DNA of 40,361 nt from the IMG/VR virus record IMGVR_UViG_3300045988_017739, positions 1 to 40,361 of that record; one strand, given 5' to 3'. Of this stretch, positions 2,518 to 40,361 are shown one piece after another (position 1 is the stretch's first letter; the number at the start of each line of letters is the position of its first letter). This DNA comes from a virus. Made by a program: the position numbers and the translations under genes. Below the pieces are notes generated by a model. The model worked only from the letters and a program-made list of their open reading frames with translations, was not told where the DNA came from and ran no database searches.

Positions 2518-5500
2518 TCATCGTTTCTTTGCCTTGGCGTGATCCGCTTCCCAACGGGTTTCACGGGCAAGGTCAGCCGCCGTCTGCGCCTTGGAGTAGA
2601 TATACTGGTTGACCGTGGTATCTCCCTCCCGGTGGTAGTTGCCGGCGGCTGCGGCCACCTGCGCGGTGCCGGAGGCAGCCACGCGGTTGCTGACCTTCAT
2701 GTTGTCGGACAGCACCAGCGCGTTGGCCTGCCGGACCATCTCGGCCAGCTTTTTGTTGGCCTCTACCAGTGCCGCCGTGTTATCCTCGATCACCTTGTCA
2801 TGATCGGTGTCCGGCTTGGGCACAGGATTGGTGGAGCCAGAAGAACCGGAGGAACCGCCGGTGCCGGAGGATCCAGAGGAGCTGCTGTACTGCCGCTTCA
2901 GCTCGGCCAGTTGTTTCTCGTAGTCAGCCTTCAGGGTGGCCAGCTTACGGTCGTACTCGGCATCTTTGACAGTGCTGTTGTGGTTCAACTCCTGCAGCTT
3001 CCGGTTGTAATCCTGCTCCAACTCACTGAGCTTAGCGCTCAGGCTGTCAGAAGAATTATCCTTTTCGGTCAGCTGCTTCTTCAGTGCTGCCAGCTGCTTC
3101 TCATAGTCGGCCTTCAGATCTGCCAGACGGCGCTCATATTCAGCGCTCTGGGCTTCACCCTTGTTGGTGTAGGTGTTCTTCAGCTCCTGCAGCTTCTGGT
3201 TATAACTCTTTTCCAGATCGCTGATCTTGTTGGCAAGCTCATCCGAGTTGGACGGGCTGGAGCCGGAGGAGCTGCTGCCGGAGCTGGTGTTGTCCTTCTT
3301 GGGCTGGTACTTGGCAATCAGCTCCGCAAGGGACTTCTGGTACTCTACGCCCAGCAGCTGCTTTTCCAGATCCGACATCTGGATGACATTCTGGGCTTCG
3401 TTGATCTGCTTTTCCAGTTCTGCCAGCCGGGCGGCGCTGGTGGTGGTTTTCTTCTCCAGCTGCGCGGATGCAAGCTTGTACCGGGCATCCAGCACCTTCT
3501 TTTCGAGGTCTGCCAGATCCTGCTCATAACCCGCAGCCAGAACCTTCTTTTCGGCCTCCAGCATCCCGGGGTCATCCTTGGTCAGCTTTGCCTTTTCCAG
3601 CTCTGCCAGCTTCTTATTGTACTTCGCGTCCAGCTGCTTCTTTTCAGCCGTGCCGGACTGCTTTGCGTACTGGGCATCCAACTGCGCCTGCGCCTTCGCC
3701 CTTTCGGCTTCGGCCTTCTCAGCAGCTTTCCGCTCTTCTCGTTCCTTGTGTATCTTATCGGCATAGTCAAAGGCAATATTGGATACGGGATCAATATGAC
3801 TGTCCCAGAGCCATGCAACAGCGTTGTAGACCTTGATCAGACCATTGATAATGTTGACAAAGCCTTGCAGATAAGAGCCATAAACGCGCAGCAGGCCCTC
3901 AAAAATGTAGGACATGAAGTCCCCGATACCGCCCCAGATGGACTTGACACTGCTGGATGCGTCCTTGTTGGTAGCGATAAAACTGCCCAGAGCACCCACC
4001 AGCATACCGATCAGGGAGATCACCAGCAGGATGGGGTTTGCGTCCATGGCGATGTTCAGCCCGGTCTGTGCGCCGGTGGCCGCAGTGGCCGCTGGCACGA
4101 ATTGCCCGATAAACCCTGCCGCCAGACTTGCAAGGTTTTTGAACACGCCGGACAGCGAGCCGGACAGCTTGCCAAGCGCATCCATGGCAAAGGTCTGGAT
4201 CTGGGTGCGCTGCTCCTGTGTGCAGGCATTCCAGAAGTAGGCGGCAGACCATGTAGCTATGCTTTCCAGATCGCCGTCCTTGATCGCCTTGAACAGCGTT
4301 TGAATGCTGCCCACGACATCGCTCTGGATCGATTTGTTGATCTGCTCCCAGCTGGAGTTTAGCTTTTCGGTAAACTGGTAGGTCAGCAGCTCTGCTGCGC
4401 TGGAGAACTGCGGTCCGGCGTCCTCGATGGTCTTGCTGACGGTCTTTGTACCGTCAGCGGCGATGGTGGTTACAGTCTTGACCGTGCGCTCTACGCCGTC
4501 AATGATCTCAGTGCCGGTGGAGGTGATGGTCTGCTTCTGCTGGGTGGTACCGTCCTTCAGGGTCTCGGTCACGCTCTGAGTGACCGTTTCAATGCCGTCC
4601 GCGAGGGTTGTTGCAGTGTTGGTGACAGAGGCCACCACCTGCGCTGCGGCGTCCTTGGCCAGTTCTCCGTTTGTGGTCAGGCCCTGTGCAAGACCCTTGC
4701 AGATGTTCATGCCGATCTCGTCAAAAACCTTGGAGGGCGAGTGTATGCCCAGCAGACCCTTGACGGAATCCACCATGCCCGCTACCTTGGACTTGACGCC
4801 GGACACAAGGCCATCCCATGCACCGATGATACCGTTCTTGATACCCAAGACGATGTTGGTGCCGATGTTGCCCCATTCGGTGTAGCTGCCATCCCAGACG
4901 CCCACGATCTTGGCAACGCAGGCAATGGCGGCTTCTCCAAGGTTTGCGATGCCGAGCAGGATGCCGTTCACGATGGCCTGCAGCAGCGATGCGCCGCACT
5001 GGAGCAGGTCCGGCAGATGCGAGATCAGCGCCGCGGCGAACTTCGCCAGCAGCTGTGCGGCCGCGGTGATCAGGGCAGGCAGATTGTTCTGGATGCCCGT
5101 GATCAGGTTCTTCAGGATCTTAATACCGGCGTCAAAAAGATCGTCTGCATGATTGCCCAGATACTGGGTCAGCTTGATGATGATGCCGGTGGCGGCGCTC
5201 ATGATCATCGGGATCTTCTGCGTGATGCCGTTCACCAGACTGCCCATGATGGTCACAGCAGCATCCAGCATGGCAGCAGGACCGTCCTGCGACAGAATAG
5301 CGGTCAGGGTGGAGATCGTCTCTGTTGCTCCCTGCGCCAGCACCTTCAGTGCAGGCTCCATCTTGTCGTAGATCGCCAGCTGCAAGCCTTCCAGCGCGGA
5401 CTGCATGATGGTGACAGCGCCCTGCAGGTTGTCCAGCTGGGTGTCTGCCATCTGACCCATAGCGCCACCGGCGTTGTCGATCTGGGTGGCCAGAGTTTCC

Positions 5501-10961: not shown

Positions 10962-11591
10962 TTAGTGTCGTGCAGCCCGGATCTGAGCCGAAAGCTGCTG
11001 GAAAAGTGCAGGGTTGCGGGTGCGCAGCGCCATGCGCTCGGCACCGGTCATTGCCAGAAACTCGTTCAGGTTCGGCTGCGCATTGCCGCCCTGAGCACGG
11101 GGCTTCGGGATGATGATCGGGGGAGTGCCCGGCTGGTCCTGATCCTGCTCGTGGTTGTCACCGTCCTGCCCGGCGGGGTCCTCCTGCTGGAACAGATACG
11201 GCTTGCGGGCCTTGAGATCCGCGAAAGCCGCCTTGACGTCCTCGCTCTGGTTTTTGCTGTCACGCAGTGTAGCTCTGTTCGGCAGCAGCGCGATCACGTC
11301 CTCTTCATCCAGCGCGCCGGCCTCCCGGGCAGCGGTACGGAGCACACCGCTGAAGGTGTATTCCGCTGCCTGCGTGGTCAGCTGGTTGGTCAGATCCGTG
11401 ATCTGGTTGCGCAGATCGTTCACGTCCACGCCCTCAAAGGCTGCAAGACCCTGCTGCGCAGTGGTCAGCTGCGCCTGCAAGCCCTGTACAGTGGCCTGAT
11501 GGGCGGTTTCGTCCTGACCGTGCAGGCGCATGATCTGGTTGATCTGCTCTTCGGTCAGGCCTTCAATGGCTCTCAAATCCTCGCGTTTCAT
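10962..11591 (-). CDS. Scaffolding protein
   Basis: 209 aa, helical and acidic with a low-complexity C-terminus. RBS AAGGAGG, immediately upstream of the capsid gene. Confidence 0.65.
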   Translation of the reverse strand: MKREDLRAIEGLTEEQINQIMRLHGQDETAHQATVQGLQAQLTTAQQGLAAFEGVDVNDLRNQITDLTNQLTTQAAEYTFSGVLRTAAREAGALDEEDVIALLPNRATLRDSKNQSEDVKAAFADLKARKPYLFQQEDPAGQDGDNHEQDQDQPGTPPIIIPKPRAQGGNAQPNLNEFLAMTGAERMALRTRNPALFQQLSAQIRAARH

Positions 11592-11737
11592 GGTTTTTCC
11601 TCCTTGGAGAGCTACGGCACTTGGTATCGTGTTGCCTTACACGGGCTCTCTGCCCCTCTTTGTACACCGGGGGCTCGGTGTGATCTGGGTAAAGGATAGC
11701 AGCATCCCGGTCAGAAAAACGAACACGATTAGAAAAA

Positions 11738-11951
11738 CGTCAACCTGTCAACCATGTCAACCATGTCAACGCCGGTTCCCTGTAATCTCTCGCGGGCGCG
11801 CATCAAGCGTGTTCGCGCGGGTGTATTCTTCTTTTCTTCTCTTTCAGGTCTGGATATAGAATTTAAGTTGACATGGTTGACAACTGCCAAAAGCCGCACC
11901 GTTACACGCTTTTTCGTGTCAACAAAAAAGCGCCCCAGAGCATCTGAGGCG
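11738..11951 (+). repeat. Dispersed structured intergenic element, copy A
   Basis: GTCAAC at 11739, 11747, 11756, 11765 and 11918. GTTGAC at 11867 and 11876. Central hairpin 11791..11817, then the pyrimidine tract TTCTTCTTTTCTTC. It aligns over roughly 200 bp with copy C and shares its architecture with copy B. Confidence 0.85.
11924..11951 (-). terminator. Rho-independent terminator (minus strand) after the XRE gene; right edge of repeat copy A
   Basis: On the minus strand, CGCCTCAGA-tgc-TCTGGGGCG is followed by CTTTTTTGTT. The single non-Watson-Crick pair is G-U only on the minus-strand transcript. Confidence 0.65.
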
Positions 11952-11965
11952 CGGCAAAGAACATA

Positions 11966-12172
11966 TTATTCCGGGGTGTATTCAAGCAGATCACCGGGCT
12001 GGCAGTCCAGCAGCTTGCAGATCATCTCAATGTTTGACCACGAAAGCTGCCCGCCGGTTCTTAATTTTTGCAGTGTAGATTGGCTGAACAGCCCCTCCCT
12101 GCGGATCCTTGTAGTGTTGTACCCGGAAGCCTTCAGGGCTTCCAGTACGTCCATTTTGTATTTCAGTGGCAT
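11966..12172 (-). CDS. XRE-family helix-turn-helix regulator of the accessory island
   Basis: Preferred start is MPLKYKMDVLEALKASGYNTTRIRREGLFSQSTLQKLRTGGQLSWSNIEMICKLLDCQPGDLLEY at ATG 12172, after GGAGGAGGG. The HTH pattern is typical. It is divergent from the plus-strand island. Confidence 0.7.
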   Translation of the reverse strand: MPLKYKMDVLEALKASGYNTTRIRREGLFSQSTLQKLRTGGQLSWSNIEMICKLLDCQPGDLLEYTPE

Positions 12173-12208
12173 AATATCCCTCCTCCAGTATATCATAGCA
12201 GAACCATT

Positions 12209-12296
12209 GCACGAAAACAAGTGCAAAAACTCCAGAATTATGCACTAATATTCGTGCAAAACGCCAATATCAATGCACTAATATTCGTGCTATAAT
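12209..12296. promoter_or_regulatory. Divergent promoter/operator region: three GCAC-N8-GTGC palindromic sites plus an extended -10 (TGcTATAAT)
   Basis: Sites at 12209..12224, 12242..12257 and 12275..12290. The last two lie inside an exact 18-nt direct repeat ATGCACTAATATTCGTGC. TATAAT is at 12291..12296, preceded by TGC. Confidence 0.6.
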
Positions 12297-12341
12297 AAAG
12301 CCGTAGAACAAAGCACCCACAAAACAGACGGAGGAAATACC

Positions 12342-12662
12342 ATGGAAATCAAAAACGTGCACTGCGAGAAGCAAGCACTGGAACTCTTCAGGATGATGCC
12401 GGACAACAAGAAGTCAGCTCTCCACAATGCGTTGAGCAGAAACCTTGAGTTTACCACTTCTTGGGGGCTGGAACTTGGCGAACTCCGCGCTTATGAGAAC
12501 GGTGTATACATCACTCTCCAAGGTACCCGCTGCAGCTTTTCCGTGTATGCAGAGTTGGTAAACGGAAATCCTGTTTTCAAGCGCAAGCCCCCTGAAAGCA
12601 AGCTCAACCTGAAATTCAGAAGCGGCCTGCTGTTCGATGCTGGAGATTTCAACGAATTCTAA
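12342..12662 (+). CDS. Hypothetical protein (accessory island gene 1)
   Basis: 106 aa with RBS GGAGGAAA 6 nt upstream. I recognise no motifs. Confidence 0.6.
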   Translation: MEIKNVHCEKQALELFRMMPDNKKSALHNALSRNLEFTTSWGLELGELRAYENGVYITLQGTRCSFSVYAELVNGNPVFKRKPPESKLNLKFRSGLLFDAGDFNEF

Positions 12663-12685
12663 ACAATATTGGAGGACTAAAAACC

Positions 12686-12928
12686 ATGAAAACCCTGAAC
12701 ATCACTTACGACACCACCGAGATCGAGGAGAACGGCAAGCCGATCACCGGCGAGACCTGCTGCAACCTGAAGCTGCGCGATGAGCTTGCGGACCAGCTGC
12801 TCCGCACCGGAAAGTGCGATCCTATCAGCATGATGCACATTGAGCTGGTGCTGCAGGGCGTGGAACTGCTGCAGGGCCGGAAGATCGTACTGGACAGCAT
12901 CAAGCACTTTGAACTGGTAAAGGAGTAA
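12686..12928 (+). CDS. Hypothetical small acidic protein (island gene 2)
   Basis: 80 aa with RBS TTGGAGGA. Confidence 0.6.
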   Translation: MKTLNITYDTTEIEENGKPITGETCCNLKLRDELADQLLRTGKCDPISMMHIELVLQGVELLQGRKIVLDSIKHFELVKE

Positions 12929-12942
12929 GGGAGGACGAGACC

Positions 12943-13344
12943 ATGTTTGAGATCACCGACACCGAGAAGCTGAGAGATGCTTACACCCTGCTGGCATTCA
13001 TCCGGGATGACGTTCCCACCACCACCGCCGAGCAGAAGTCCGGCTTGGCCGCCTTTATGGTCAGCCTCAAGAAGGAGATCCGGGCTTACAACCACCGCCC
13101 GGCACCTGACAGCCGCATTGTCGAGGAGCGCGGCATTGATGGCTACATTGAGCTGGTGCGGCTCCCGGACGAGCTGGACGACCTCAACGAGGACGATGCC
13201 GCCGAGTGGTTTCAGGCAAATCGCTACTATGAGTTTCGCCCCACATACTATGACTGTTCTGGTCAGCGCTTCACAAACTGGTACAAGCTGCACCGCCGCT
13301 GTGGGCACTGGTTCGCATATCATTCGGTCAGCTTTGATGTGTGA
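12943..13344 (+). CDS. Hypothetical protein (island gene 3)
   Basis: 133 aa with RBS AAGGGAGGA. The C-terminus is YYDCSGQRFTNWYKLHRRCGHWFAYHSVSFDV. Confidence 0.6.
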   Translation: MFEITDTEKLRDAYTLLAFIRDDVPTTTAEQKSGLAAFMVSLKKEIRAYNHRPAPDSRIVEERGIDGYIELVRLPDELDDLNEDDAAEWFQANRYYEFRPTYYDCSGQRFTNWYKLHRRCGHWFAYHSVSFDV

Positions 13345-13364
13345 TCAAAAAGGAGGACAAAATC

Positions 13365-13586
13365 ATGAAAACCAGCACCTTCAACCGCATTTTTGAGAAT
13401 GCCCGCACTGTGAACATCCAGAGCAACGAGTGGTTTAACTATGCCGGGTTCTTCTGGATGCAATGCACTGAGAAGCAGCTGGCTCAAATGCGGATGCTGC
13501 TTAAAGCGCAGAACTGCAAGACGACCATGAAGAACGGCGAAGAATGGTACATTCTGAACAGCGGAACGCTGATCAAAGTCCACTAA
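13365..13586 (+). CDS. Hypothetical protein (island gene 4)
   Basis: 73 aa starting MKTSTFNRIF at ATG 13365, after AAAGGAGGA. The ORF-track start at 13341 lacks an RBS. Confidence 0.55.
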   Translation: MKTSTFNRIFENARTVNIQSNEWFNYAGFFWMQCTEKQLAQMRMLLKAQNCKTTMKNGEEWYILNSGTLIKVH

Positions 13587-13598
13587 GGAGGTTTTACT

Positions 13599-14045
13599 AT
13601 GAGCGAGAGCACAAAGAAGATCCGCTGCGCAGCGGTCATCACCAACAATCTTGGGCAGCTGCTGGTGCTCCAGCAGGGCGATATCTACCGGCTGCCTTCC
13701 CGTGAGATCAAGTACACTCAGAACACGAACGAGTGCATAGAAGCCGCGCTGCGGGAGGTGCAGGAGAGTTGCCAGATCCGCGGGGTGCAGGTGGATGTGG
13801 CCACCGGGCTGCTTGAGCTGGATCCCGAAAAGAGCCTGCTGCTGGTGTTCGGCTGGATCACCGAAACGCCGGAGCTGCCTCCGAGCAGCACGCCGGACAG
13901 CGAGCCGCGCCCCGTCTGGCTTGCAAAGAAGAAAGAGCAGCAGTTGACGGCAAACCTGTGGAACGTCTACAGTCACCCCACAGATCTGGCGCTGTCCATA
14001 GCGCTGATGCAGCGCAGTCAGCTGGATATGATGAACGCACAATAA
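13599..14045 (+). CDS. Nudix-like hydrolase with a degenerate Nudix box (island gene 5)
   Basis: 148 aa with RBS AAGGAGG. The segment LPSREIKYTQNTNECIEAALREVQESCQI has the spacing of GX5EX7REUXEEXGU, but with S for G, ES for EE and C for G. Confidence 0.4.
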   Translation: MSESTKKIRCAAVITNNLGQLLVLQQGDIYRLPSREIKYTQNTNECIEAALREVQESCQIRGVQVDVATGLLELDPEKSLLLVFGWITETPELPPSSTPDSEPRPVWLAKKKEQQLTANLWNVYSHPTDLALSIALMQRSQLDMMNAQ

Positions 14046-14052
14046 AACAGAA

Positions 14053-14076
14053 CCCCGGAGGTGCTCCCCTCCGGGG
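14053..14076. terminator. Bidirectional terminator between the convergent island and the MuF-like gene
   Basis: CCCCGGAGG-loop-CCTCCGGGG, flanked by an A-run upstream and TTTTCTTATTTTTT downstream. Confidence 0.7.
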
Positions 14077-14081
14077 TTTTC

Positions 14082-15290
14082 TTATTTTTTCGCCTGTGCT
14101 GCCGCGCTGGCTGCTGCGCTGCGCCCGAAGCCGGGCACGCTTTCGCGCAGCTGATACTGGTGCAGCCCTGTCTGCTGCAGAAAGTCCTTCATCTTTGCAC
14201 GAGAGGCTGCCAGCTTGTCCGCTGCGGCCTTTTCTGCATCCTTCTGGCCACTTTCCTTGGCAACAAGAAACGCCCGCTTGTCAGCCCGGATCTGGCGTTC
14301 CTGTGCACGTTGCATCTGGGTGGCCTTGTACCGCCCGATCTCCTTCCCGTTGTAGGAAACAGTGGCGCTGTTGATCCGCTCCAGACGCTCCGGGGAATAG
14401 CTGCGGGTGCTGGCGCCTTCCCAGTACATACTCCAGTTGTGGGCGCAGTTTGCACCCATAAAGCCCCGCACATCCCCGTAGCCGATATCTGACAGGGACA
14501 GGTACCCGTGCTGCCCGCTGCGGCTGACCAGCTGCCCCTGCCACCAGCTGTGGTTGGTCAGGTTCGGCCCGCCGTTACCGGTACGGGCGCCCACATGGGC
14601 ATCCAGCTCCATCAGATCGCACTCCAGTGTGTCCGCATTATAACGGGTGATCTCCCCGGCGGTCTGGTTTACTCCGGTGCGTGTAGCCCGTAAAACCACA
14701 ACGTCCAGTGTGTCTACATGACCGCTTGGGTAGGTGATCGCACCCAGTCCCTTGGCTGCCAGCTCATTCAGCGCCCGCCGGGCAGCAGTGTCAGAGCTAA
14801 AGGCTCCGCTGATTGCATCCGCGTGCGCCATGTCCAGATAATAGGCCAGCTGCCGCTGGGAGGTCTCTGTCATATTCAGGTTACCCATAAGCGCGTGGGT
14901 CTGGGTCAGGTTGTACAGGGTGTTCATGGTACGCCGGTAGCCGCTCTGGACGATCTGCTGCGCCTCCTCGTTCTCCCCCAGTGTAGGGAGTACCCGGCCA
15001 GCCTTGGCGGCGTCATTCACGTCAATCCCGTAGGCCTGCTTCATGGCTTGCGCGAAAATAGCAGCCTCCTTCGGGCCGATCTGCTGCACGATCAGGTTCA
15101 TCTGCTGGATCAGGTAGGCTTTGCCGGCGCCCAGCGCCTGCGCCCGGTAGCTCTGCCACTCGGCTGTGGCGGTGACGCCGCCCGCTTTCACGATCCGGCG
15201 CACCATATCCCGCAGGATCCGCTCGTTCAGCTCGTCCCACGGGGCAGCCAGCAGCCCGGCATACGCGTTGACCTGCTCCGGCGTCAGCAT
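14082..15290 (-). CDS. Minor head protein (SPP1 gp7 / phage Mu F-like head morphogenesis protein)
   Basis: 402 aa, directly after the portal region. The motif ...GFMGANCAHNW... resembles the G-x-NC-R/H signature of Mu F-like proteins. Confidence 0.7.
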   Translation of the reverse strand: MLTPEQVNAYAGLLAAPWDELNERILRDMVRRIVKAGGVTATAEWQSYRAQALGAGKAYLIQQMNLIVQQIGPKEAAIFAQAMKQAYGIDVNDAAKAGRVLPTLGENEEAQQIVQSGYRRTMNTLYNLTQTHALMGNLNMTETSQRQLAYYLDMAHADAISGAFSSDTAARRALNELAAKGLGAITYPSGHVDTLDVVVLRATRTGVNQTAGEITRYNADTLECDLMELDAHVGARTGNGGPNLTNHSWWQGQLVSRSGQHGYLSLSDIGYGDVRGFMGANCAHNWSMYWEGASTRSYSPERLERINSATVSYNGKEIGRYKATQMQRAQERQIRADKRAFLVAKESGQKDAEKAAADKLAASRAKMKDFLQQTGLHQYQLRESVPGFGRSAAASAAAQAKK

Positions 15291-22957: not shown

Positions 22958-23293
22958 GTCAACCAAACCCGAAAATTTGAAGTTGACGGGAAAAATGCAG
23001 CAGTGGAGCCACTTTTCCGGCATCTGTCAACGTTGTCAACCAAAATGTCTTATATACCCTCGCGGGCACAAGCATACAAGCGTGTGCGCCCTATGCGTGT
23101 GCTTGTTTTCTTCTTTTCTACTTCTTCTAGTAGATTTTATAGTTGACAATGTTGACAGAACCAGAAAAACGGCTTGATTGCTTGCTTTTCAGCGTCAACC
23201 AGTTTGTCAACCAAACGAAAACGCCCGGTTGACAACGTTAACGGATTGCTTGTTTTCTTCGGTTCTTGGGGAAATTCCGCTTTTTACGTTGAC
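22958..23293 (+). repeat. Dispersed structured intergenic element, copy B (expanded)
   Basis: GTCAAC at 22958, 23026, 23035, 23194 and 23206. GTTGAC at 22982, 23142, 23151, 23228 and 23288. CCTCGCGGGC core, hairpin 23068..23106, then TTTTCTTCTTTTCT. Confidence 0.8.
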
Positions 23294-23308
23294 GCGGTTA
23301 ACAGCCGC

Positions 23309-23566
23309 TTATTTCAGCAGCGCCTCGCTCTCACAAAGCGCCCGGCAGACGGTGCACTTCGTCAGCGGCTTATCTAACCAGATATTAAAAAGATCGCATT
23401 TCGGTGCATTCCATTCAGGCGGTGCTTTGCGCCCGTGCGTGCGGTTCCGTACTTTGTAGAACCGGCACAGCTGATAGTAGCCTTCTGAATCTTCGGGAAA
23501 TGCACAGCCCTGTTCCGGCACTAAAACCGGCGAGTGGATTATGATGCCCGGTGTTAGGTCTACCAT
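23309..23566 (-). CDS. Hypothetical Cys-rich protein
   Basis: 85 aa starting MVDLTPG at ATG 23566, after GAGAGGAG. Four or more Cys residues, including a CTVC pair. Confidence 0.45.
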   Translation of the reverse strand: MVDLTPGIIIHSPVLVPEQGCAFPEDSEGYYQLCRFYKVRNRTHGRKAPPEWNAPKCDLFNIWLDKPLTKCTVCRALCESEALLK

Positions 23567-33421: not shown

Positions 33422-33521
33422 TTTGCAATCAGTCTGCCCTTGGCGGGGCGTACAGACCTACACAGCTGTATTGTACCACCACAGGACAGGCTTGTCAAAG
33501 TGTACCTATGGAGGTGTGTAC

Positions 33522-34682
33522 ATGGCCAGAAGAACGAATACAGCCGCATGGCTGCCAAACCAGCAGCGCTGGCAGATCAAAGTGCAAAAGAACGGCGTGC
33601 GCCGGACTTTCACCAGTGCAAAGCCGGGTAGAACCGGTCAGCGGGAAGCGAACCGGAAAGCGGACGCTTGGCTGGATGAGGGCATCACAGATACAGCTAA
33701 ACGCTGCTCCGATGTCTGGGCAGAATTCTTGGTCTCCGCGCAGGCTGCCGCGGGCAGCAGCTACGCAGACCAAATAGAGAAGTTCGGGCGCAATTACATT
33801 CTGCCGGTGATCGGCATGAAACGTATCGGGGATCTGAACACCGGTATGCTGCAGGATGTACTGAACCGATCTTACCGCGAGGGCTGTCTGAACCCGGATA
33901 GTGAACGGAAAAGCAAAGGCAACCTGTCCCGCAAAACGCTGCAGGGGATCCGCGGGGTCGAAGTGGCCTTTGTCAAATGGGCGCGGCAGCATAAGTATAC
34001 CGCCCTGCGCCCGGAGGACGAAAACTTGGCGGTGCCGAAGGGCGCGCGAAACAAGGGCAAGAAGATCCTGCAGCCCGAAGCACTGCGCGTGCTGCTTTCC
34101 ACAGATACCCGTGTGATCCGTGGAAAAATCGTGCTTGATGATAATATCCATGCCTACCGCGTGGCAGTCATGACAGGCTTGCGCCCCGGGGAGCTGCTGG
34201 GGCTGCGTGTGGGTGATGTCGAGGGATCCCGGCTGCATATCGGGCGGGCGATTAACCGTCAGAATGAGGAGACAACCGGGAAGAACGAAAACGCGATCCG
34301 AACGGTGATCCTACACCCGTTGGCTGCTGCCGAGATCCGGGCACAGCTGCAGCAGCGTACCATACAGAGCGGACCCCTCCGGGATGATGATCCCATCTTT
34401 CCGCTGCCAAATCAGCAGAGCCTATACAATTATTGGCGGTTCTATCAGCGCAGTAACGGTATCCCGCCCATAAGCCTGTATGAACTGCGGCACACCTTTG
34501 TCAGCATGATCGAGGACGCGGTGTCCCCGGCAGAGCTGCGCCGCATGGTAGGGCACAGCAAGAGCATGGACACGTTTGGTTGGTACAGCCACGCCGTCAC
34601 TGGCAGGGATAAAGCTGCAGCATTGGCGGTTTATGACGTGCTTGCCGAGTATTCCCCAGCACCAGAAAAACCCACTTTGTAA
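33522..34682 (+). CDS. int: Tyrosine recombinase (phage integrase)
   Basis: MARRTNTAAW at ATG 33522, after GGAGGTG. Conserved residues: ...TGLRPGELLGL..., ...LRHTFVSM..., ...GHSKSMDTFGWYSH... (R, H-x-x-R, H, Y). Confidence 0.9.
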   Translation: MARRTNTAAWLPNQQRWQIKVQKNGVRRTFTSAKPGRTGQREANRKADAWLDEGITDTAKRCSDVWAEFLVSAQAAAGSSYADQIEKFGRNYILPVIGMKRIGDLNTGMLQDVLNRSYREGCLNPDSERKSKGNLSRKTLQGIRGVEVAFVKWARQHKYTALRPEDENLAVPKGARNKGKKILQPEALRVLLSTDTRVIRGKIVLDDNIHAYRVAVMTGLRPGELLGLRVGDVEGSRLHIGRAINRQNEETTGKNENAIRTVILHPLAAAEIRAQLQQRTIQSGPLRDDDPIFPLPNQQSLYNYWRFYQRSNGIPPISLYELRHTFVSMIEDAVSPAELRRMVGHSKSMDTFGWYSHAVTGRDKAAALAVYDVLAEYSPAPEKPTL

Positions 34683-34690
34683 CCCACTTT
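34669..34690 (+). repeat. Candidate integrase arm-type sites, left pair (AACCCACTTT x2)
   Basis: AACCCACTTT at 34669..34678 and 34681..34690, straddling the int stop codon. Confidence 0.45.
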
Positions 34691-34797
34691 TTATAGTTGG
34701 ATAAAATCAGTAGTGACTTTATAAGGCTACTAATAGCCCTATAAAGCCGCTAAAACGCAGGAAAAGCGACCCGGTAGCCCTGTAAATATAATGTACT

Positions 34798-34825
34798 GGT
34801 TGTTCGAATCCACCCGCGCCCACCA
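34798..34825 (+). other. tRNA 3' fragment (T-arm, acceptor 3' strand and CCA) = probable attP core
   Basis: GGTTG-TTCGAAT-CCACC-CGCGCCC-A-CCA is a canonical T-loop with one mismatch in the T-stem. No matching 5' acceptor strand (GGGCGCG), D arm or anticodon arm lies upstream. Confidence 0.65.
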
Positions 34826-34830
34826 AGATA

Positions 34831-34869
34831 AAACACCTAGAAACGTGAGCTTCTGGGTGTTTTTCTTTT
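34831..34869 (+). terminator. Rho-independent terminator after the tRNA fragment and int
   Basis: ACACCTAGAA-acgtgagc-TTCTGGGTGT, then TTTTCTTTTATT. Its single wobble is U-G only on the plus-strand transcript. Confidence 0.65.
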
Positions 34870-34874
34870 ATTGT

Positions 34875-34896
34875 AACCCACTATCAAACCCACTAT
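34875..34896 (+). repeat. Candidate integrase arm-type sites, right pair (AACCCACTAT x2)
   Basis: AACCCACTAT at 34875..34884 and 34887..34896, in the same orientation as the left pair. Confidence 0.45.
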
Positions 34897-34913
34897 TTTC
34901 TCTAAAAAAAAAT

Positions 34914-34949
34914 AAGGGCCGCAGCCCTGTGGTGGGAGCTGCGGCCCTT
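34914..34949 (-). terminator. Terminator hairpin downstream of the lysis cassette
   Basis: AAGGGCCGCAGC (34914..34925) pairs with GCTGCGGCCCTT (34938..34949), a 12-bp perfect stem. The A-run on the plus side gives a U-run on the minus transcript. Confidence 0.7.
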
Positions 34950-34953
34950 GCTA

Positions 34954-35220
34954 TTACTTGCCCTGCGCCTTCAGGCGGTCAAAGGTCTTGTCCGCTTCCA
35001 GTGCGGCGGCGGTGAAAGAGTTATTCTTCCACCACGCCACCAGCGCGGTCACGGTCGTGATCCCCGCCGTGACCAACTGCTCCACGGTGGCGCTCTCGAT
35101 GGGCAGCACGGGCTTGCCCAAAGCGCTGAGCACCTGATTGGTCAGTGCCAGCAGCAGGCAGGCGGTACGGGCGATGGTGCCTGCAGAGATAGTGGGTGCG
35201 TTGTAAGTAGTTGCCTTCAT
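34954..35220 (-). CDS. Holin (phi LC3 / Dp-1-like family, tentative)
   Basis: 88 aa with two hydrophobic segments and ...ALVAWWKNNSFTAAALEA..., typical of small Firmicutes phage holins. It is the last gene of the lysis block. Confidence 0.6.
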   Translation of the reverse strand: MKATTYNAPTISAGTIARTACLLLALTNQVLSALGKPVLPIESATVEQLVTAGITTVTALVAWWKNNSFTAAALEADKTFDRLKAQGK

Positions 35221-36572: not shown

Positions 36573-36905
36573 TTACATATCCTCCAAATTCACATCCGTA
36601 CTCATGGCGAGGTAGTCCAGCTGGGCCTGCACTCTGGCGCGGAAAATCTCGGCCTCGGACAACTCGCGCAAGACGAACCACCAGCGACCGTCCGGGGTGA
36701 CAGAGCCGGGCAGGATCTGTACCAGCTCCGCGTTGGTCATCGTGTAGCTCCGCTTGCCATCGGTACAGGTTACGCTGGCCAGCTTGCCCTCGAACTGGGC
36801 TGCGGTCAGCTCCTTGTCGGAGCAGAAGTTGTTGCCGTTGAGGGTCAGGCTGCTGATTTTGGAGCCATCAGCCAGCGTAACCTCCCATAACCTTTTTTCT
36901 TCCAT
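36573..36905 (-). CDS. Hypothetical tail-fibre-associated protein (XkdW-like position)
   Basis: 110 aa starting MEEKRLWEVTLADGSKISSLTLNGNNF at ATG 36905. The C-terminus is ...RARVQAQLDYLAMSTDVNLEDM. It overlaps the RT 3' end by 61 nt. Confidence 0.5.
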   Translation of the reverse strand: MEEKRLWEVTLADGSKISSLTLNGNNFCSDKELTAAQFEGKLASVTCTDGKRSYTMTNAELVQILPGSVTPDGRWWFVLRELSEAEIFRARVQAQLDYLAMSTDVNLEDM

Positions 36906-38074
36906 GTTGGGTCCTTTCCGAACAGCTCTCTGTACAGGCTGCTCATGTGCTGGATCTGCTGCCGGGACATATACCGGTAGTGGGCGCAGATCCATGACTT
37001 ATAAGCGTTCTCTATCTCTTGGCAGGTGATTCTCCCGACATCCAGTAGCCGCTTGTATGCTTTGAGTTTGCGCCGCTCGCGGGTGATCGACTTGGGATTG
37101 ATCCGGCGTGTGATCGTGCCGTCCTCCTTCAGGGAATAACACACCTGCAGGTGCCGGTACTCATCGGACAACCGGCAGATCCGGGTCTTGTGCTCGTTGA
37201 GGATAAGGCCCTGCGCCTTGCAGAGTGCCCGGACGGTGTCCAGCAGATCTACAAGGGTCTGCTTGTCCTTGCTGAGGGCGTAAAAATCATCTGAATACCG
37301 GCCATGCTCCGGGATGCCGCAAACAATCTTGATGTAATTATCAATCGGCAGCGGCAGGAAGATCCCGGCGTTCTGGGATACCTGATTCCCGATGTCAGCG
37401 CCCTTGCGCAGCATCTTCTCGCCGGTCAGGGCGGTCGCTGGTACGCCGCAGTTGAGCGTTGGGCTGACCTTGGTTTGATACATCCGGGCGATCTCCTTGT
37501 CGGAGAAGCGGGACACATCCAGCTCAAACGTCTGGAACGTACCGCGCAGATGCCCGTTGACCTCGGCCAACTCGGCAGGATCGGTGATCTCACGGGCAAG
37601 ATACCGGTCAAACTGATCAAGGCAGATGTCGTGATGGATGTTCGGGTAATAGCCGGAGAAATCGGCAAAGAGGCCAAAGCCTTCATTGGTGCCCTCCCGT
37701 TCGTAATACCGCCGCAGATGGATCTCAAACCGCCTGCGTTCAAGGTCAACACCTTTGCCCACCTGAGAGGCCGTGTTGTCGTACTGCAAATACTTCTGCA
37801 ACAAAGGGGTCAGGTACTCGTCACAGGTAACGTGATTCACCGCTTTGTCCCTTGTGGCGGCGCTGGTGATATACCGCTCGTGCCCGCGTTCCCGGATGGT
37901 AAAGCGGGTGCCCACCTTCGGGGTGTAGGTTCCGTTCTGGAGATCCTTCTGCAGCTTTGCTGTTTCCCTCAGCTTGTTGATCTCAAACAACTGCGTGTTG
38001 TACTTGAACTTTGAGCCCTTCATGGCCTTGGAACCGGCGTGGTATAAAATATTTGCGTCAGTGTATTTGCTCAT
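36845..38074 (-). CDS. DGR reverse transcriptase
   Basis: 409 aa. It carries the RT motifs, including ...GADIGNQVSQNAG... (the DGR-typical [I/L]GxxxSQ) and the catalytic RYSDDF (YxDD). It lies immediately downstream of a TR with a cognate VR. Confidence 0.9.
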   Translation of the reverse strand: MSKYTDANILYHAGSKAMKGSKFKYNTQLFEINKLRETAKLQKDLQNGTYTPKVGTRFTIRERGHERYITSAATRDKAVNHVTCDEYLTPLLQKYLQYDNTASQVGKGVDLERRRFEIHLRRYYEREGTNEGFGLFADFSGYYPNIHHDICLDQFDRYLAREITDPAELAEVNGHLRGTFQTFELDVSRFSDKEIARMYQTKVSPTLNCGVPATALTGEKMLRKGADIGNQVSQNAGIFLPLPIDNYIKIVCGIPEHGRYSDDFYALSKDKQTLVDLLDTVRALCKAQGLILNEHKTRICRLSDEYRHLQVCYSLKEDGTITRRINPKSITRERRKLKAYKRLLDVGRITCQEIENAYKSWICAHYRYMSRQQIQHMSSLYRELFGKDPTWKKKGYGRLRWLMAPKSAA

Positions 38075-38252
38075 TGCTTCTTACTAAAATTCCGCGTAAA
38101 AACAGCACAATAGGTTCATCAGTCGTAACCGGAGCCGTCACTGTTGACACCCACACAGGGGTATTTATCATGGGTCTACCATGAAAGGACAGTCTTTCCT
38201 TTCGCAGAGCTTCAAGGGGTCAAACCCCTATCGCGGGGAAGTTGCGAAATCA
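38075..38252 (-). ncRNA. DGR RNA spacer region between TR and RT (structured)
   Basis: Hairpins AGGGGT-caa-ACCCCT (38215..38229) and GAAAGGA-cagtctt-TCCTTTC (38183..38203). No ORF. The position corresponds to the Sp segment of DGR RNAs. Confidence 0.5.
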
Positions 38253-38927
38253 ACCCCCGACCGGACGCACGCCGTTGACATTGGAGGCGTTGTTGTAGTT
38301 GGCATTGCCATTGTTGTTGGCGTTGCCAAAATACGTGGCCGAAATAGTATGCAAAAACTGCCCTAATTCAGTAACTAAGGACTGAAGAGAAGATTCATCA
38401 TCAAACTTGCCGAAGCGCTTTTTGTCAGAGGCGCGCAGGCTCTTGGTGCAGGCTATGATCGTTTCGATCTGCAGCGCCAGCTCTGTATAGCGGTTGATGT
38501 TTACCGGGAGCGATTCCACAATATATTGCAGTTCATCGTGCAGCTGCCAGCTGGCAGAGATCGCATAATCCAGCTCTACCCGGCGGGCGTGATACTCGTC
38601 CGCGCAGGTGGGCCAGATGGAATTTGCGGCTCTCAGCCGCAGCGGGATCTGCCGGAACAGATCCAGCACACGATCACTTTCCCGGTCAATCATCCGGTGC
38701 ACAAAGGCGGTCTCCTCGTCCCTGATCCGCTGGATCTCGGCATCATACTCCGGCCCATAAGGCAGGGTAACGGTGCGGATCCGCTGCGCAATCCGGGCTT
38801 CCATCTTCTGCTTGCTCAACCCCAAAGAGCGGGACAGCAGATCCGTCAGGCTACGGCCAAGAGCCAAAGCCAGATGGTGGGCTTCCAGCCGGGACGGCTT
38901 GCGCTGACTTACAGGGACAGAGGACAT
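38250..38927 (-). CDS. avd: Avd-like DGR accessory protein. The ORF reads through TR.
   Basis: ATG 38927 (MSSVPVSQRK...) after GAGAAGG. The protein is helical and basic and lies between the target gene and TR, as avd does in BPP-1. The frame stays open through TR, ending ...ATYFGNANNNGNANYNNASNVNGVRPVGG. Confidence 0.55.
   Translation of the reverse strand: MSSVPVSQRKPSRLEAHHLALALGRSLTDLLSRSLGLSKQKMEARIAQRIRTVTLPYGPEYDAEIQRIRDEETAFVHRMIDRESDRVLDLFRQIPLRLRAANSIWPTCADEYHARRVELDYAISASWQLHDELQYIVESLPVNINRYTELALQIETIIACTKSLRASDKKRFGKFDDESSLQSLVTELGQFLHTISATYFGNANNNGNANYNNASNVNGVRPVGG
38253..38346 (-). repeat. DGR template repeat (TR)
   Basis: The 94-nt TR matches VR at 84 of 94 positions. Every mismatch is at a plus-strand T, which is an A on the coding strand. 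The region is rich in AAC/AAT codons. Confidence 0.9.
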
Positions 38928-38953
38928 AGAAAAACCTTCTCTCTTACTCACTC

Positions 38954-38976
38954 CCGGCGCGGACAAGCCGCGCCGG
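38954..38976 (-). promoter_or_regulatory. GC hairpin/cruciform just 3' of VR (DGR retrohoming-associated structure and/or terminator)
   Basis: CCGGCGCGG-acaag-CCGCGCCGG, a 9-bp perfect stem located 9 nt after the target gene stop codon. Confidence 0.55.
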
Positions 38977-38984
38977 ATTCAGGA

Positions 38985-39869
38985 TTAACAGATACCCCCG
39001 ACCGGACGCACGCCGCCGACATTGGAGGCGCCGTTGTAGTCGGCATTGCCATAGCTGTTGGCGATGCCAAAAAACGTGGCCGAAACAACGTCACGCAGCC
39101 AGCACCAGTAGGAGCGGGTAAAACTGTACTGCGGTGCGAGCCGGAACAGCGGCAGCTGCGACTTACAGACTGTGTAGTTCTGCGGGATGGTGCTGCCGTC
39201 AGACGCAGGAGCAAAGATATGGCTGCCGTACATCATGTTTTCGTTGGGCAGCTCGATGGTGCTGTCAAACCATGCGCCACCGGACGGCTTGCCGTTGCTG
39301 ACCGCGTTGACCAGCCACTCACGGTGGTTCAGGATGTGCGCCGCGCCAAAGGCGTTTGCAAAGGTCTGCTTTGCCTGATCCAGACTGGTCTTGTACATCT
39401 GAGAGCCGGCATAGCCGCCCTCGGAGGTGTTGGTCTCGTTCATGGCTGCGGTGTACAAATGGTTCTGCGGGATGACCACGACATGATGCTTGGTGCAAGG
39501 CGTGTCGCCGGTGTTCAGCCAGTAGTCAAAGCCCGCGATCAGGTAGTTTACGCCGCCGATAGACCAGTAATCGCCCAGATACAGATCCTGAAACGTGCCT
39601 GCGCTGATCTGCGCGGCCTGTGCAGACGTCAGACTGCCGCCCAGATTCTTGCCGCGGAACGTGGCGTTATGCGCGCCTGCGCCGTTGGGCACCATAATGC
39701 GGAGCATGGTGTCCTGCGCCATATCCGGGTTTACGATGCTCAGATCAGACAGGATCTTTGCCAGCGTTGCGCGCTGGGTGCTGTTGCCCTGCACAAGCAG
39801 CTGATCCGTCTTGGATACAGTGCCTGCAACAGGAAGCTGTGTGATAGGAATACGAGTGTCGCCTGCCAT
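38985..39869 (-). CDS. DGR target protein (Mtd-like receptor-binding / tail-fibre tip protein with a C-terminal variable region)
   Basis: 294 aa with RBS AAGGAGG overlapping the tail-fibre stop. The C-terminus ...YWCWLRDVVSATFFGIANSYGNADYNGASNVGGVRPVGGIC carries VR. This kind of C-terminus is typical of C-type-lectin-fold DGR targets. Confidence 0.8.
   Translation of the reverse strand: MAGDTRIPITQLPVAGTVSKTDQLLVQGNSTQRATLAKILSDLSIVNPDMAQDTMLRIMVPNGAGAHNATFRGKNLGGSLTSAQAAQISAGTFQDLYLGDYWSIGGVNYLIAGFDYWLNTGDTPCTKHHVVVIPQNHLYTAAMNETNTSEGGYAGSQMYKTSLDQAKQTFANAFGAAHILNHREWLVNAVSNGKPSGGAWFDSTIELPNENMMYGSHIFAPASDGSTIPQNYTVCKSQLPLFRLAPQYSFTRSYWCWLRDVVSATFFGIANSYGNADYNGASNVGGVRPVGGIC
38994..39087 (-). 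repeat. DGR variable repeat (VR)
   Basis: Counterpart of TR, offset +741 nt. Substitutions fall at VR positions 39016, 39017, 39031, 39032, 39041, 39053, 39055, 39064, 39073 and 39086. Confidence 0.9.
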
Positions 39870-39881
39870 AAAGTAACCTCC

Positions 39882-40361
39882 TTAGGCAAATTGGATTTTT
39901 CGGGTAGCGAGAAGTGCGGATCCGTCAGAAGCGCACAAAAGGGAGCCATCGGTCAGGGTGACATGATACTGCACCTCGCCGGTGATCAGCATATTGTGTA
40001 GCCATGCCATCATATCGCCGGATGCTTTTGCATCAGCGGGGGCGCTGTCCATGGACAGGGTTTTGTCCGTGCCCGCCTTCGTGCCGGCTTCTGCTGCAGC
40101 CTTCTTTGCCGCGGCTTCGCTGGCAGCTGCCGCACTTTGCGAGGCTGCCGCTGCCTTCTGGCTGGATGCTGCTGCGCTGGCACTCCCGGACGCGCTGGAC
40201 GCACTGGAGGCTGCTGCGCTCTGGCTGTCTGCAGCTGCCTTCTGACTGGATGCTGCGGCGCTGGCACTGTTGGCGGCCGCGCTCTGGCTTCTGGATGCTG
40301 CATTGGCACTGTTGGCAGCGGCGCTCTGGCTGGCTGCTGCCGCCCTCTGGCTGGCTGCTGC
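39882..40361 (-). CDS. Tail fibre protein, 3' part (continuation of 617..1 across the circular junction)
   Basis: The frame is open from the window end to TAA (rc of 39882..39884). My translation is AAASQRAAAASQSAAANSANAASRSQSAAANSASAAASSQKAAADSQSAAASS...AAKKAAAEAGTKAGTDKTLSMDSAPADAKASGDMMAWLHNMLITGEVQYHVTLTDGSLLCASDGSALLATRKIQFA. It is in phase with the left-edge ORF once the 38-nt overlap is collapsed, giving 1,059 nt or 352 aa in total. Confidence 0.75.
   Translation of the reverse strand, partial: AAASQRAAAASQSAAANSANAASRSQSAAANSASAAASSQKAAADSQSAAASSASSASGSASAAASSQKAAAASQSAAAASEAAAKKAAAEAGTKAGTDKTLSMDSAPADAKASGDMMAWLHNMLITGEVQYHVTLTDGSLLCASDGSALLATRKIQFA

Follow-up and report, generated by a model that had tools for sequence, protein, structure and literature searches.

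A probable self-regulated accessory operon in a variable site between packaging and head genes of Faecalibacterium phages

Introduction

Why would a temperate phage keep five small genes, with a regulator of their own, between structural genes that are read from the opposite strand? The question is raised by the IMG/VR virus record IMGVR_UViG_3300045988_017739, whose 40,361 nucleotides (referred to below as the window) are essentially the whole genome, of about 40 kb, of a temperate siphophage. Nearly all the genes of the window are on the − strand. The element considered here, at positions 11,966 to 14,080, consists of a regulatory gene, xre, on that strand, and of five genes, g1 to g5, which diverge from it on the + strand; it lies between the genes of the scaffold and of minor capsid protein 2. 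An initial annotation, made from the sequence, had described it as an AT-rich, foreign island that splits the late operon of this particular phage, and had proposed three possible functions: defence, anti-defence or lysogenic conversion.

In all likelihood, the region is a self-regulated accessory operon that occupies a hotspot. The best overall explanation, which we hold with modest confidence, is that this self-contained operon sits in a hypervariable hotspot found throughout the lineage, where the packaging genes (terminase, portal, minor capsid) give way to the head genes (scaffold, major capsid), and that it would be used for counter-defence or takeover of the host in the entry phase. Considered separately, the role at entry in counter-defence or takeover is proposed by analogy and is tentative.

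A small regulator, three operators and five genes

The presence of five packed + strand genes (106, 80, 133, 73 and 148 aa), each with a GGAGG motif, is confirmed by the coordinates of the open reading frames (ORFs) and by the upstream sequences: the intergenic gaps are 12–23 nt and GGAGG lies 6–9 nt before every start codon. The ratio of nonsynonymous to synonymous substitution rates (dN/dS) among alleles is 0–0.04 for g1, 0.05–0.15 for g2 (close alleles), 0.2–0.7 for g3, 0–0.24 for g4 and 0.07–0.26 for g5; all five genes are under purifying selection, and are therefore real genes. Their products, of 73–148 aa, are soluble and have no membrane segment. The divergent XRE gene ahead of them had been correctly recognised: its product, called as 68 aa in most sources (ribosome-binding site GGAGGAGG), matches the helix-turn-helix (HTH) family HTH_26 of Pfam with 48.8 bits (cut-off 22, E 8.4e-13) and a transcriptional repressor family of PHROG (E 6.7e-5). 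Its best matches in the PDB (E of 0.03 or more) are unrelated proteins, and none is a solved Aca structure. The bidirectional terminator seen after the last gene is also borne out, by a terminator score on both strands and by the folding energies of the hairpin (−24.6 and −26.6 kcal/mol, z about −5).

The region between xre and g1 contains three operators, O1, O2 and O3 (coordinates in Table 1), which are 16-bp inverted repeats of the form GCAC-N8-GTGC with a spacing of exactly 33 bp and are absent elsewhere in the window. The search for this pattern gives five matches over the two strands, at three sites, and none of 100 shuffled sequences reaches five. O2 and O3 are identical, and O1 differs from them in its inner bases. 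The half-sites are invariant across 14 alleles, while the spacers between the operators vary. Every locus with this XRE has the operators; the loci without it, where a different HTH protein (family F4) is encoded, have none. Even in a relative (L122) whose XRE has no more than 82% identity and whose cargo differs, the spacing and the half-sites of the three operators are preserved. We consider this to be strong comparative evidence that the XRE and these sites form a regulator–operator pair.

The two outer operators adjoin outward-facing extended −10 promoters, both predicted. In an extended −10 scan, the cargo promoter has a TATAAT hexamer that matches at six positions out of six, with TG at −15/−14, and it is conserved, or nearly so, in the alleles; a generic two-hexamer sigma-70 scan missed it because its −35 element is weak.

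From this layout we infer how the promoters would be active, and when they would be repressed. Upon entry into a cell devoid of XRE, the host RNA polymerase would fire the extended −10 promoter at 12288–12296 and transcribe g1–g5 up to the bidirectional terminator. The 68-aa HTH protein would then accumulate and occupy the identical O2 and O3, and the cargo operon would be switched off, because O3 covers part of the promoter spacer and of the extended −10 element. At a higher concentration of XRE, the weaker O1 would be bound and the protein would repress its own promoter. The expression of the cargo, which consists of small soluble proteins from an accessory pool that circulates among Faecalibacterium-type phages, would be a short burst at entry, and would be low later in infection and in lysogens. 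The shut-off would also limit the collision with converging late transcription.

A hypervariable site in all close relatives

When IMG/VR was scanned for the minor capsid protein, 52 loci were obtained, 50 of which are 83–99% identical; ten further contigs came from looking up the exact g3 protein. In the combined set, the scaffold and minor capsid genes are both covered by 51 loci and by the window, which makes 52 loci examined. All 52, whose minor capsid proteins are 83–99% identical, have a cassette of 2.3–3.7 kb between the two genes, in 49 distinct sequences. The idea that the island is an insertion peculiar to this phage had to be abandoned, since only distant relatives are without a cassette. 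One of these, a Bacilli prophage, has its minor capsid, scaffold and capsid genes side by side. FP_Lugh, the nearest cultured phage, has two small co-oriented genes at this site.

The content of the site is not constant. About 27 cargo architectures, built from about 22 small-gene families in a broadly colinear order, occur in the 52 loci; these counts are approximate, for they come from a simple greedy ORF picker which miscalls some genes (for example in L014 and L035, and the window's own xre). The commonest family is that of g2 (39 of 52 loci), followed by g4 (30 of 52) and g3 (24 of 52), while g1, g5 and this XRE are limited to the closest group, g5 and the XRE being also present in L122. 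Differences of whole genes persist among relatives whose minor capsid proteins are 97–99% identical: g3 is missing in L014, L013 and L060 have an extra 79-aa gene, and an unrelated 70-aa acidic protein takes the place of g1 in L015 and in L017, and in L017 a Lar_restr_allev gene (Pfam E 1.2e-11) also separates g4 from g5. The same genes in the same place in all relatives, which would have spoken against an acquired accessory cassette, are thus not what is found. Among close relatives the nucleotide identity of the island is equal to that of the flanks, and the swaps of cargo begin exactly at the first ribosome-binding site, so that the variability results from the exchange of cassettes. Hypermutation is rejected as its source, on account of the same equality.

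The XRE, the operators and g5 are the conserved backbone of the cassette, while g1–g4 come and go. Indeed, g5 is present in all 17 loci that have this XRE, including L122, which is devoid of g1–g4. That XRE, operators and g5 are kept jointly in L122 suggests either a functional coupling or a recombination that is anchored at the ends of the cassette. The other loci have a different HTH protein of 75 aa (F4) and a conserved promoter, TTGACT-17-TAAYAT.

The statement that the island is AT-rich and foreign finds weak support in the composition. There is a dip in GC content at 12.0–12.5 kb (0.466 in 12001–12500 vs 0.588 in the whole window), whose source is the intergenic DNA, xre and g1 (GC content at third codon positions, GC3, of 0.62–0.65). 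The GC3 of g2–g5 (0.74–0.83) is the same as that of the structural genes (0.75–0.79). For most of the cassette the composition is consequently no proof of a recent foreign origin, and a recent horizontal acquisition deduced from GC content is rejected for g2–g5.

As regards the position, the cassette does lie between the minor head and the scaffold genes; the family of the former is Phage_min_cap2, and no other minor-head family matches at E of 1 or below, so that we do not adopt the label MuF. It probably does not split a single late operon, as had been assumed, but stands at the boundary of two. This follows from conserved promoter-like motifs in the 140 nt or so that precede the scaffold gene, also in relatives that lack the repeat element described at the end of this article, if these motifs, which were picked by eye and not scored against a model, correspond to a real promoter.

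The distal gene codes for a divergent Nudix-fold protein

The last gene of the operon had been noted for a degenerate Nudix-like box, which turns out to be real according to a profile search, BLASTP and hhalign. Searched against 1.84 billion representatives, the g5 profile retrieves only its own cluster, the NUDIX protein P0020 (E 2.4e-4), which is confirmed as NUDIX by Pfam (9e-19), and one 1115-aa protein, which is compositionally odd and was disregarded. The g5 protein and P0020 are 28% identical over 120 aa by BLASTP, with an hhalign probability of 97%. In the PDB, the three best matches of the profile are all MutT/Nudix proteins, with weak E values (0.27–0.42). No NUDIX model matches g5 at E of 1 or below in Pfam, or of 0.1 or below in NCBIfam.

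The alignment covers the core of the Nudix fold, and g5 (LPSREIKYTQNTNECIEAALREVQESCQI) keeps R52, E53 and E56 of the REUxEE helix; compared to the consensus GX5EX7REUXEEXGU the box is not intact. The first G of the box has become R and its E has become Q, three residues are inserted in the helix, EE becomes ES (EN in relatives) and the last G becomes Q or R. In MutT-type enzymes, the second glutamate of the EE pair is needed for metal binding; a weak hydrolase activity, or none, is expected for g5 because this pair is now ES or EN. We conclude from these alignments that g5 belongs to the Nudix fold, as a divergent member whose catalytic box is degenerate. It would more likely bind a nucleotide, such as an ADP-ribose or NAD derivative, than hydrolyze one.

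Degenerate-box Nudix proteins that bind rather than hydrolyze are known among the NrtR regulators, which sense ADP-ribose (PMC13464706). The likeness to g5 lies in the alignment over the Nudix core and in the three residues retained in the helix. Unlike NrtR, g5 has no fused DNA-binding domain, it has lost the G and the E of the box, it has an insertion in the helix, and it is below all the thresholds of Pfam and NCBIfam.

The cargo and the gene pool from which it comes

No recognisable motif had been seen outside the last gene, and our searches agree: g1–g4 have nothing significant in Pfam, PHROGs, NCBIfam and PADLOC, and match nothing in the PDB as single sequences, nor do the profiles of g2, g3 and g4. 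Nothing significant is obtained for g5 either, in these four family collections or as a single sequence in the PDB. The sole match in PADLOC, that of g4 with Cas2 (E 0.02), is at chance level. A search of 50,697 phage records with tblastn gives no match for g2 and g4. In Pfam, PHROGs, NCBIfam, PADLOC and PDB, none of the five products g1–g5 resembles a defence, structural or replication family. No homolog of a validated Acr was found for g1–g5 in the sequences of the PDB (single or profile) or in PHROGs.

The family of g1 is narrow (16 matches). We considered that g1 may be a second, Cro-like regulator, and rejected this: it has no HTH and is swapped for an unrelated acidic protein in relatives. 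The g3 family is much larger, with 206 clusters and an invariant C-terminal motif, YDC.G..FT...R...W.AYH.V..D; the AlphaFold2 model of g3 has a predicted local distance difference test score (pLDDT) of 78.6, and Foldseek finds no match to it better than E 0.02 in the PDB and BFVD, the top ones being unrelated or uncharacterised. The exact g1 and g4 proteins are found on at least 1000 assembled contigs.

The alleles of g2 are mosaic. The N-terminal 25 residues or so (MKxLNITYDT..GETC) and the C-terminal SIKHxELVKE are kept, and some alleles have another sequence over the central 35 residues or so (L029, L030 and L046 in the alignment).

Members of the same families occur in other phages, in other places. 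A g3 homolog that is 55% identical is found in Faecalibacterium phage Pioen, in a + strand operon with an XRE-like gene and a resolvase. A second prophage lineage from gut metagenomes (L074–L078) has homologs of g3, F24 (76%), F12 (70%) and F5 (48%) in a long operon that diverges from the integrase module and also contains LPD11, PemK, Lar_restr_allev and PAPS_reduct genes. In a third lineage (L084–L104), likewise from gut metagenomes, g4 (92–95% identical), F25, F29, a g2-like gene and F38 (a Lar homolog) are between a GH25 lysin and a repressor or integrase, and DUF6908 and ADP-ribosylglycohydrolase genes are their neighbours. The hotspot of this third lineage appears to correspond to the one of Toutatisvirus type reported in bioRxiv 10.1101/2024.10.15.618418. 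The cargo is part of a mobile pool of small genes in three niches, since homologs are in the head module, in an operon close to an integrase and in a lysis–integrase hotspot.

The ADP-ribosylglycohydrolase of the third lineage is full-length (Pfam E 2.6e-61) and accompanied by DUF6908 and the shared small genes in L094:4297-8228 and L097:4574-8185. Together with the Nudix-like g5, it hints at a conflict that would be centred on ADP-ribose or NAD.

The cargo proteins of the hotspot as a whole are soluble, have 47–190 aa and are without ATPase, nuclease or membrane domains. When the families other than those of the window were compared with PHROGs and Pfam, only DUF7678/phrog_4709 (F7), phrog_28578 (F23) and Lar (F38) were matched. 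Lar_restr_allev is also the only known anti-defence family that was found among the cargo; it is present in L017 and in the shared pool, and the window has none.

What is the operon for?

The initial description of an accessory cassette with a regulator and a terminator of its own stands, its promoter being predicted. The three functions then suggested do not fare equally well: defence is not supported, since there is no PADLOC match and the products are all small soluble proteins; a repressor that would occlude the promoter is hard to reconcile with constitutive lysogenic conversion; anti-defence or host takeover is favoured, by association only. It is indeed the presence of Lar and of ADP-ribosylglycohydrolase in the shared gene pool that points to counter-defence.

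Several observations weigh against an entry-phase role in counter-defence or takeover. No cargo protein is assigned to anti-defence by homology, and it is a relative, and not the window, that carries the Lar homolog; moreover, Lar, PemK and ADP-ribosylglycohydrolase are weak indicators, since early and moron regions hold many genes that have other roles. The promoters are predictions, with poor −35 elements, and neither was reported by the generic sigma-70 scan; the early timing is deduced from the architecture and from the positions of homologs in other phages. The HTH gene is divergent, not operon-distal as are most aca genes. The linkage between XRE and g5 could simply reflect end-anchored recombination, and the AlphaFold2 model of g5, calculated from a shallow alignment, is poor (pLDDT 38), which makes the binding of a ligand a matter of speculation.

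It may be that the cassette is a generic early accessory region, similar to the nin/ea-like regions of lambda, whose cargo tunes replication, recombination, nucleotide metabolism or host physiology, the HTH protein merely timing its expression. The homologs located in long operons of many small genes near the lysogeny module would fit, as would the colinear order with variation in presence and absence, typical of nin-type regions, and the lack of anti-defence homology of g1–g5; a Nudix-fold protein could also serve nucleotide housekeeping. We nevertheless find this unlikely: the replication module (PolA, VapE, DUF2800 nuclease, SNF2 helicase) is already elsewhere in the genome, the catalytic box of g5 is degenerate, the turnover of whole genes between relatives that are 97–99% identical is more typical of conflict loci, and the same gene pool contains the Lar homolog and the ADP-ribosylglycohydrolase. 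Still less likely is a lysogenic-conversion moron, or a prophage defence or exclusion cassette, expressed for the benefit or the protection of the lysogen. The strongest operators overlap the predicted cargo promoter and the regulator is autoregulated, from which steady-state repression is predicted; PADLOC gives no match beyond chance level, and the small soluble cargo has none of the domains (ATPase, nuclease, membrane) mentioned above. An autonomous unit with promoter and terminator among late genes is the classic layout of a moron, g4 homologs are in a moron-typical lysis–integrase hotspot, and the prophage is very prevalent, judging from the number of contigs that have the exact g1 and g4. 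Many relatives have at this site the gene of a predicted lipoprotein (F2, 169–177 aa) which could be an exclusion factor, but this gene is read from the opposite strand, is not part of the operon under HTH control, and is absent from the window.

P22 immI lies in a comparable position, and one may also think of a secondary immunity region of that kind, in which the XRE would be a Mnt/Arc-like repressor of an antirepressor, or of a modulator of the lysis–lysogeny decision, encoded among g1–g5. An operon that is repressed independently inside the late region of a temperate phage, and three operators between divergent promoters, as in a genetic switch, are what one would then expect. No antirepressor family is present in the results of Pfam (E of 1 or below) or PHROG (E of 0.1 or below) for g1–g5, the cargo is freely exchanged in relatives, or cut down to g5 plus two tiny genes, which is unexpected for the component of a switch, and the genome has no further copy of the operators through which the main immunity region could be involved in cross-talk. 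Of all the readings considered here, this is the least probable.

Keeping counter-defence or takeover at entry as the preferred role, a bolder version can be formulated, in which the XRE, the three operators and g5 would be a new counter-defence module. In this version the ligand of g5 would be a signal or by-product of immunity that derives from ADP-ribose or NAD, produced for instance by Thoeris or by NAD-depleting systems of the Sir2 or TIR type. The protein would serve as a sponge, or it would sense the ligand and, as the partner of the XRE, tune the switch, like a split NrtR-type sensor; the interchangeable slots of g1–g4 would be a recombination-driven platform for new inhibitors in the phages of a dominant gut commensal. 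We regard this as a long shot, less probable than a moron. If g5 is a non-catalytic Nudix that binds immune nucleotides, the mechanism would be new.

Comparison with known systems

The acr locus of Mu-like Pseudomonas phages sits between head genes, and its resemblance to the present cassette deserves discussion. As in acr–aca loci, there is a short operon of small proteins without known relatives, a strong promoter (here predicted), a small HTH repressor and inverted-repeat sites that overlap the cargo promoter (O3 and the predicted −10 element at 12288–12296). The cargo also varies between near-identical phages, the site is within structural genes, and there is a cluster with a gene of anti-defence type (the Lar homolog). 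Aca repressors bind inverted repeats in acr promoters, and this caps early expression (PMC13551039, PMC12282945); the closest known systems also include the Aca-regulated operons of Streptococcus elements (PMC13551039, PMC12282945, PMC7648647). On the contrary, the HTH gene is here divergent, with a promoter of its own, instead of being the last of the operon, there are three operators at a 33-bp spacing instead of one or two inverted repeats, g1–g5 and the XRE have no sequence similarity to solved Acr or Aca structures in the PDB searches, and the host is a Gram-positive gut anaerobe. The analogy with Aca is apt for the presumed mode of regulation. We do not file the locus as acr–aca, because no cargo gene resembles a known Acr in the searches above, the HTH protein could not be assigned to one of the Aca families, and xre diverges from the cargo genes.

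The iLund4u survey (bioRxiv 10.1101/2024.10.15.618418) described hypervariable hotspots in phages, including the tail–integrase hotspot of Toutatisvirus, which are Faecalibacterium phages. The conserved flanks and the highly variable cargo are common features, and homologs of g4, F25, F29 and Lar are shared with the apparent Toutatisvirus-type hotspot. The differences are the position between minor capsid and scaffold genes, the orientation opposite to that of the flanks, the dedicated repressor–operator module, and a cargo made of small genes only, without diversity-generating retroelement, resistance or defence systems.

The concept of moron comes from the literature on lambdoid phages. The cassette is like a moron in that it is a unit with a promoter (predicted) and a terminator, between late genes, with a lower GC content at its 5′ end. 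It differs in having several genes and a dedicated repressor, in being present in every close relative with a different content, and in its mostly host-like GC3. The layout of the operators argues against a constitutive expression from the repressed prophage.

Such hotspots, and anti-defence operons regulated by HTH proteins, are already known. What would be new is an example in the phages of a major gut commensal, with an unusual divergent switch that has three operators and a degenerate Nudix as conserved cargo. No description of anti-defence proteins of Faecalibacterium phages was found in the literature searched. With its two types of regulators and its 22 or so cargo families, the hotspot offers a short, well-defined set of candidates to screen for anti-defence or host takeover, and the XRE with its operators, or the F4-type regulator with its promoter, could be used as bait for more cassettes of this sort. 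More generally, one pool of small genes moves between three niches, across three phage or prophage lineages.

Features of the locus and of the genome

Table 1. Coordinates of the cassette, of its control elements and of other features in the window.
Feature	Position	Strand	Remarks
Scaffold gene	10962-11591	−	left conserved flank; Pfam Phage_scaffold, E 1.9e-23
Terminator of xre	11930-11952	−	intrinsic; terminator scan; hairpin of −18.2 kcal/mol followed by a U-run
xre	11966-12172	− (structural-gene strand)	68-aa Cro/C1-type HTH regulator; Pfam HTH_26
Divergent control region	12173-12341		169 bp; three operators and two predicted back-to-back promoters
Predicted xre promoter	12192-12200	−	extended −10 TGcTATGAT; points into xre; 8 nt from O1
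Operator O1	12209-12224		GCACGAAAACAAGTGC; adjoins the predicted xre promoter
Operator O2	12242-12257		GCACTAATATTCGTGC; 33 bp from O1
Operator O3	12275-12290		identical to O2; abuts the −10 of the predicted cargo promoter
Predicted cargo promoter	12288-12296	+	extended −10 TGcTATAAT; points into g1
g1	12342-12662	+	ORF; 106 aa; first cargo gene, facultative
g2	12686-12928	+	ORF; 80 aa; commonest cargo family at this site
g3	12943-13344	+	ORF; 133 aa; widespread in gut phages
g4	13365-13586	+	ORF; 73 aa from ATG, 81 aa from an upstream GTG; basic, pI 9.4
g5	13599-14045	+	148 aa; divergent Nudix-fold; conserved distal gene of XRE-type cassettes
Bidirectional terminator	14049-14080	both	intrinsic; ends both the cargo operon and the minor-capsid operon that converges on it
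Minor capsid protein 2 gene	14082-15290	−	right conserved flank; Pfam Phage_min_cap2, E 4.8e-78
Tyrosine integrase gene	33423-34682		marks the phage as temperate
Reverse transcriptase gene	36845-38074	−	RVT_1

The − strand genes of the window include those of the tail, the head, the large terminase, a ParB_N/DUF4417 protein, the SNF2 helicase, VapE, PolA and the DUF2800 nuclease. The host is Faecalibacterium, of the human gut. The relatives whose minor capsid protein is 84% identical lie in contigs of metagenome-assembled Faecalibacterium genomes, and FP_Lugh, whose minor capsid protein is only 33% identical, is itself a Faecalibacterium phage.

Two other ORFs of the locus were discarded: one of 56–76 aa downstream of xre, called in some contigs, is spurious (it spans the terminator, has a low GC3 and is broken in the window), and one of 126 aa on the + strand, which overlaps xre, is an antisense artefact. 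Rfam gives matches at chance level only over 11400-14300.

The reverse transcriptase gene suggests a diversity-generating retroelement, which have been described for many Faecalibacterium prophages. A 491-aa ORF nearby (38526-40001, +) has no match in Pfam. Other local dips in GC content, at 23001-23500, 34501-35000 and 38001-38500 (0.48–0.50), are comparable to that of the island and may mark more accessory or regulatory regions.

In the F4-type cassettes (L037, gap positions 674-841, for instance), the inverted half-sites AAAGTCAA and TTGACTTT flank the near-consensus TTGACT-17-TAAYAT promoter, and a small conserved hairpin (CCGGAAG..yCCGG) is present in the 5′ untranslated region ahead of the first cargo gene. 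In the Bacilli prophage (L072:6974-8530), minor capsid protein 2 has 518 aa and is extended by an uncharacterised C-terminal domain.

The F2 protein is a predicted lipoprotein of 169–182 aa (signal peptide and LTAC lipobox) in most relatives, and is missing from the window. Its gene follows the minor capsid gene directly, is read like it from the structural-gene strand, and lies outside the operon controlled by the HTH protein (L019:7271-7780, gap positions 2755-3264, and L122:5519-6067 are examples). It could act as a superinfection-exclusion factor.

Last, the 374 nt between the scaffold gene and xre (11592-11965) are non-coding and contain TGTCAAC heptamers, two or three direct and two inverted. 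The repeats at 11746-11770 and 11867-11882 consist of CCATGTCAA heptamers and, about 100 nt away, of a perfectly inverted pair, GTTGACATGGTTGACA, with a conserved AT-rich core between them. The relatives have the same layout of repeats with another heptamer (TGACTACA, CATACRAA or GTATGCAA), and in L020 and L026 the repeat element, of about 250 nt, is wholly absent. It has no match in Rfam and is independent of the type of HTH protein. It could be a set of binding sites whose specificity has been swapped (for a late activator, or as iterons), or an optional non-coding module.

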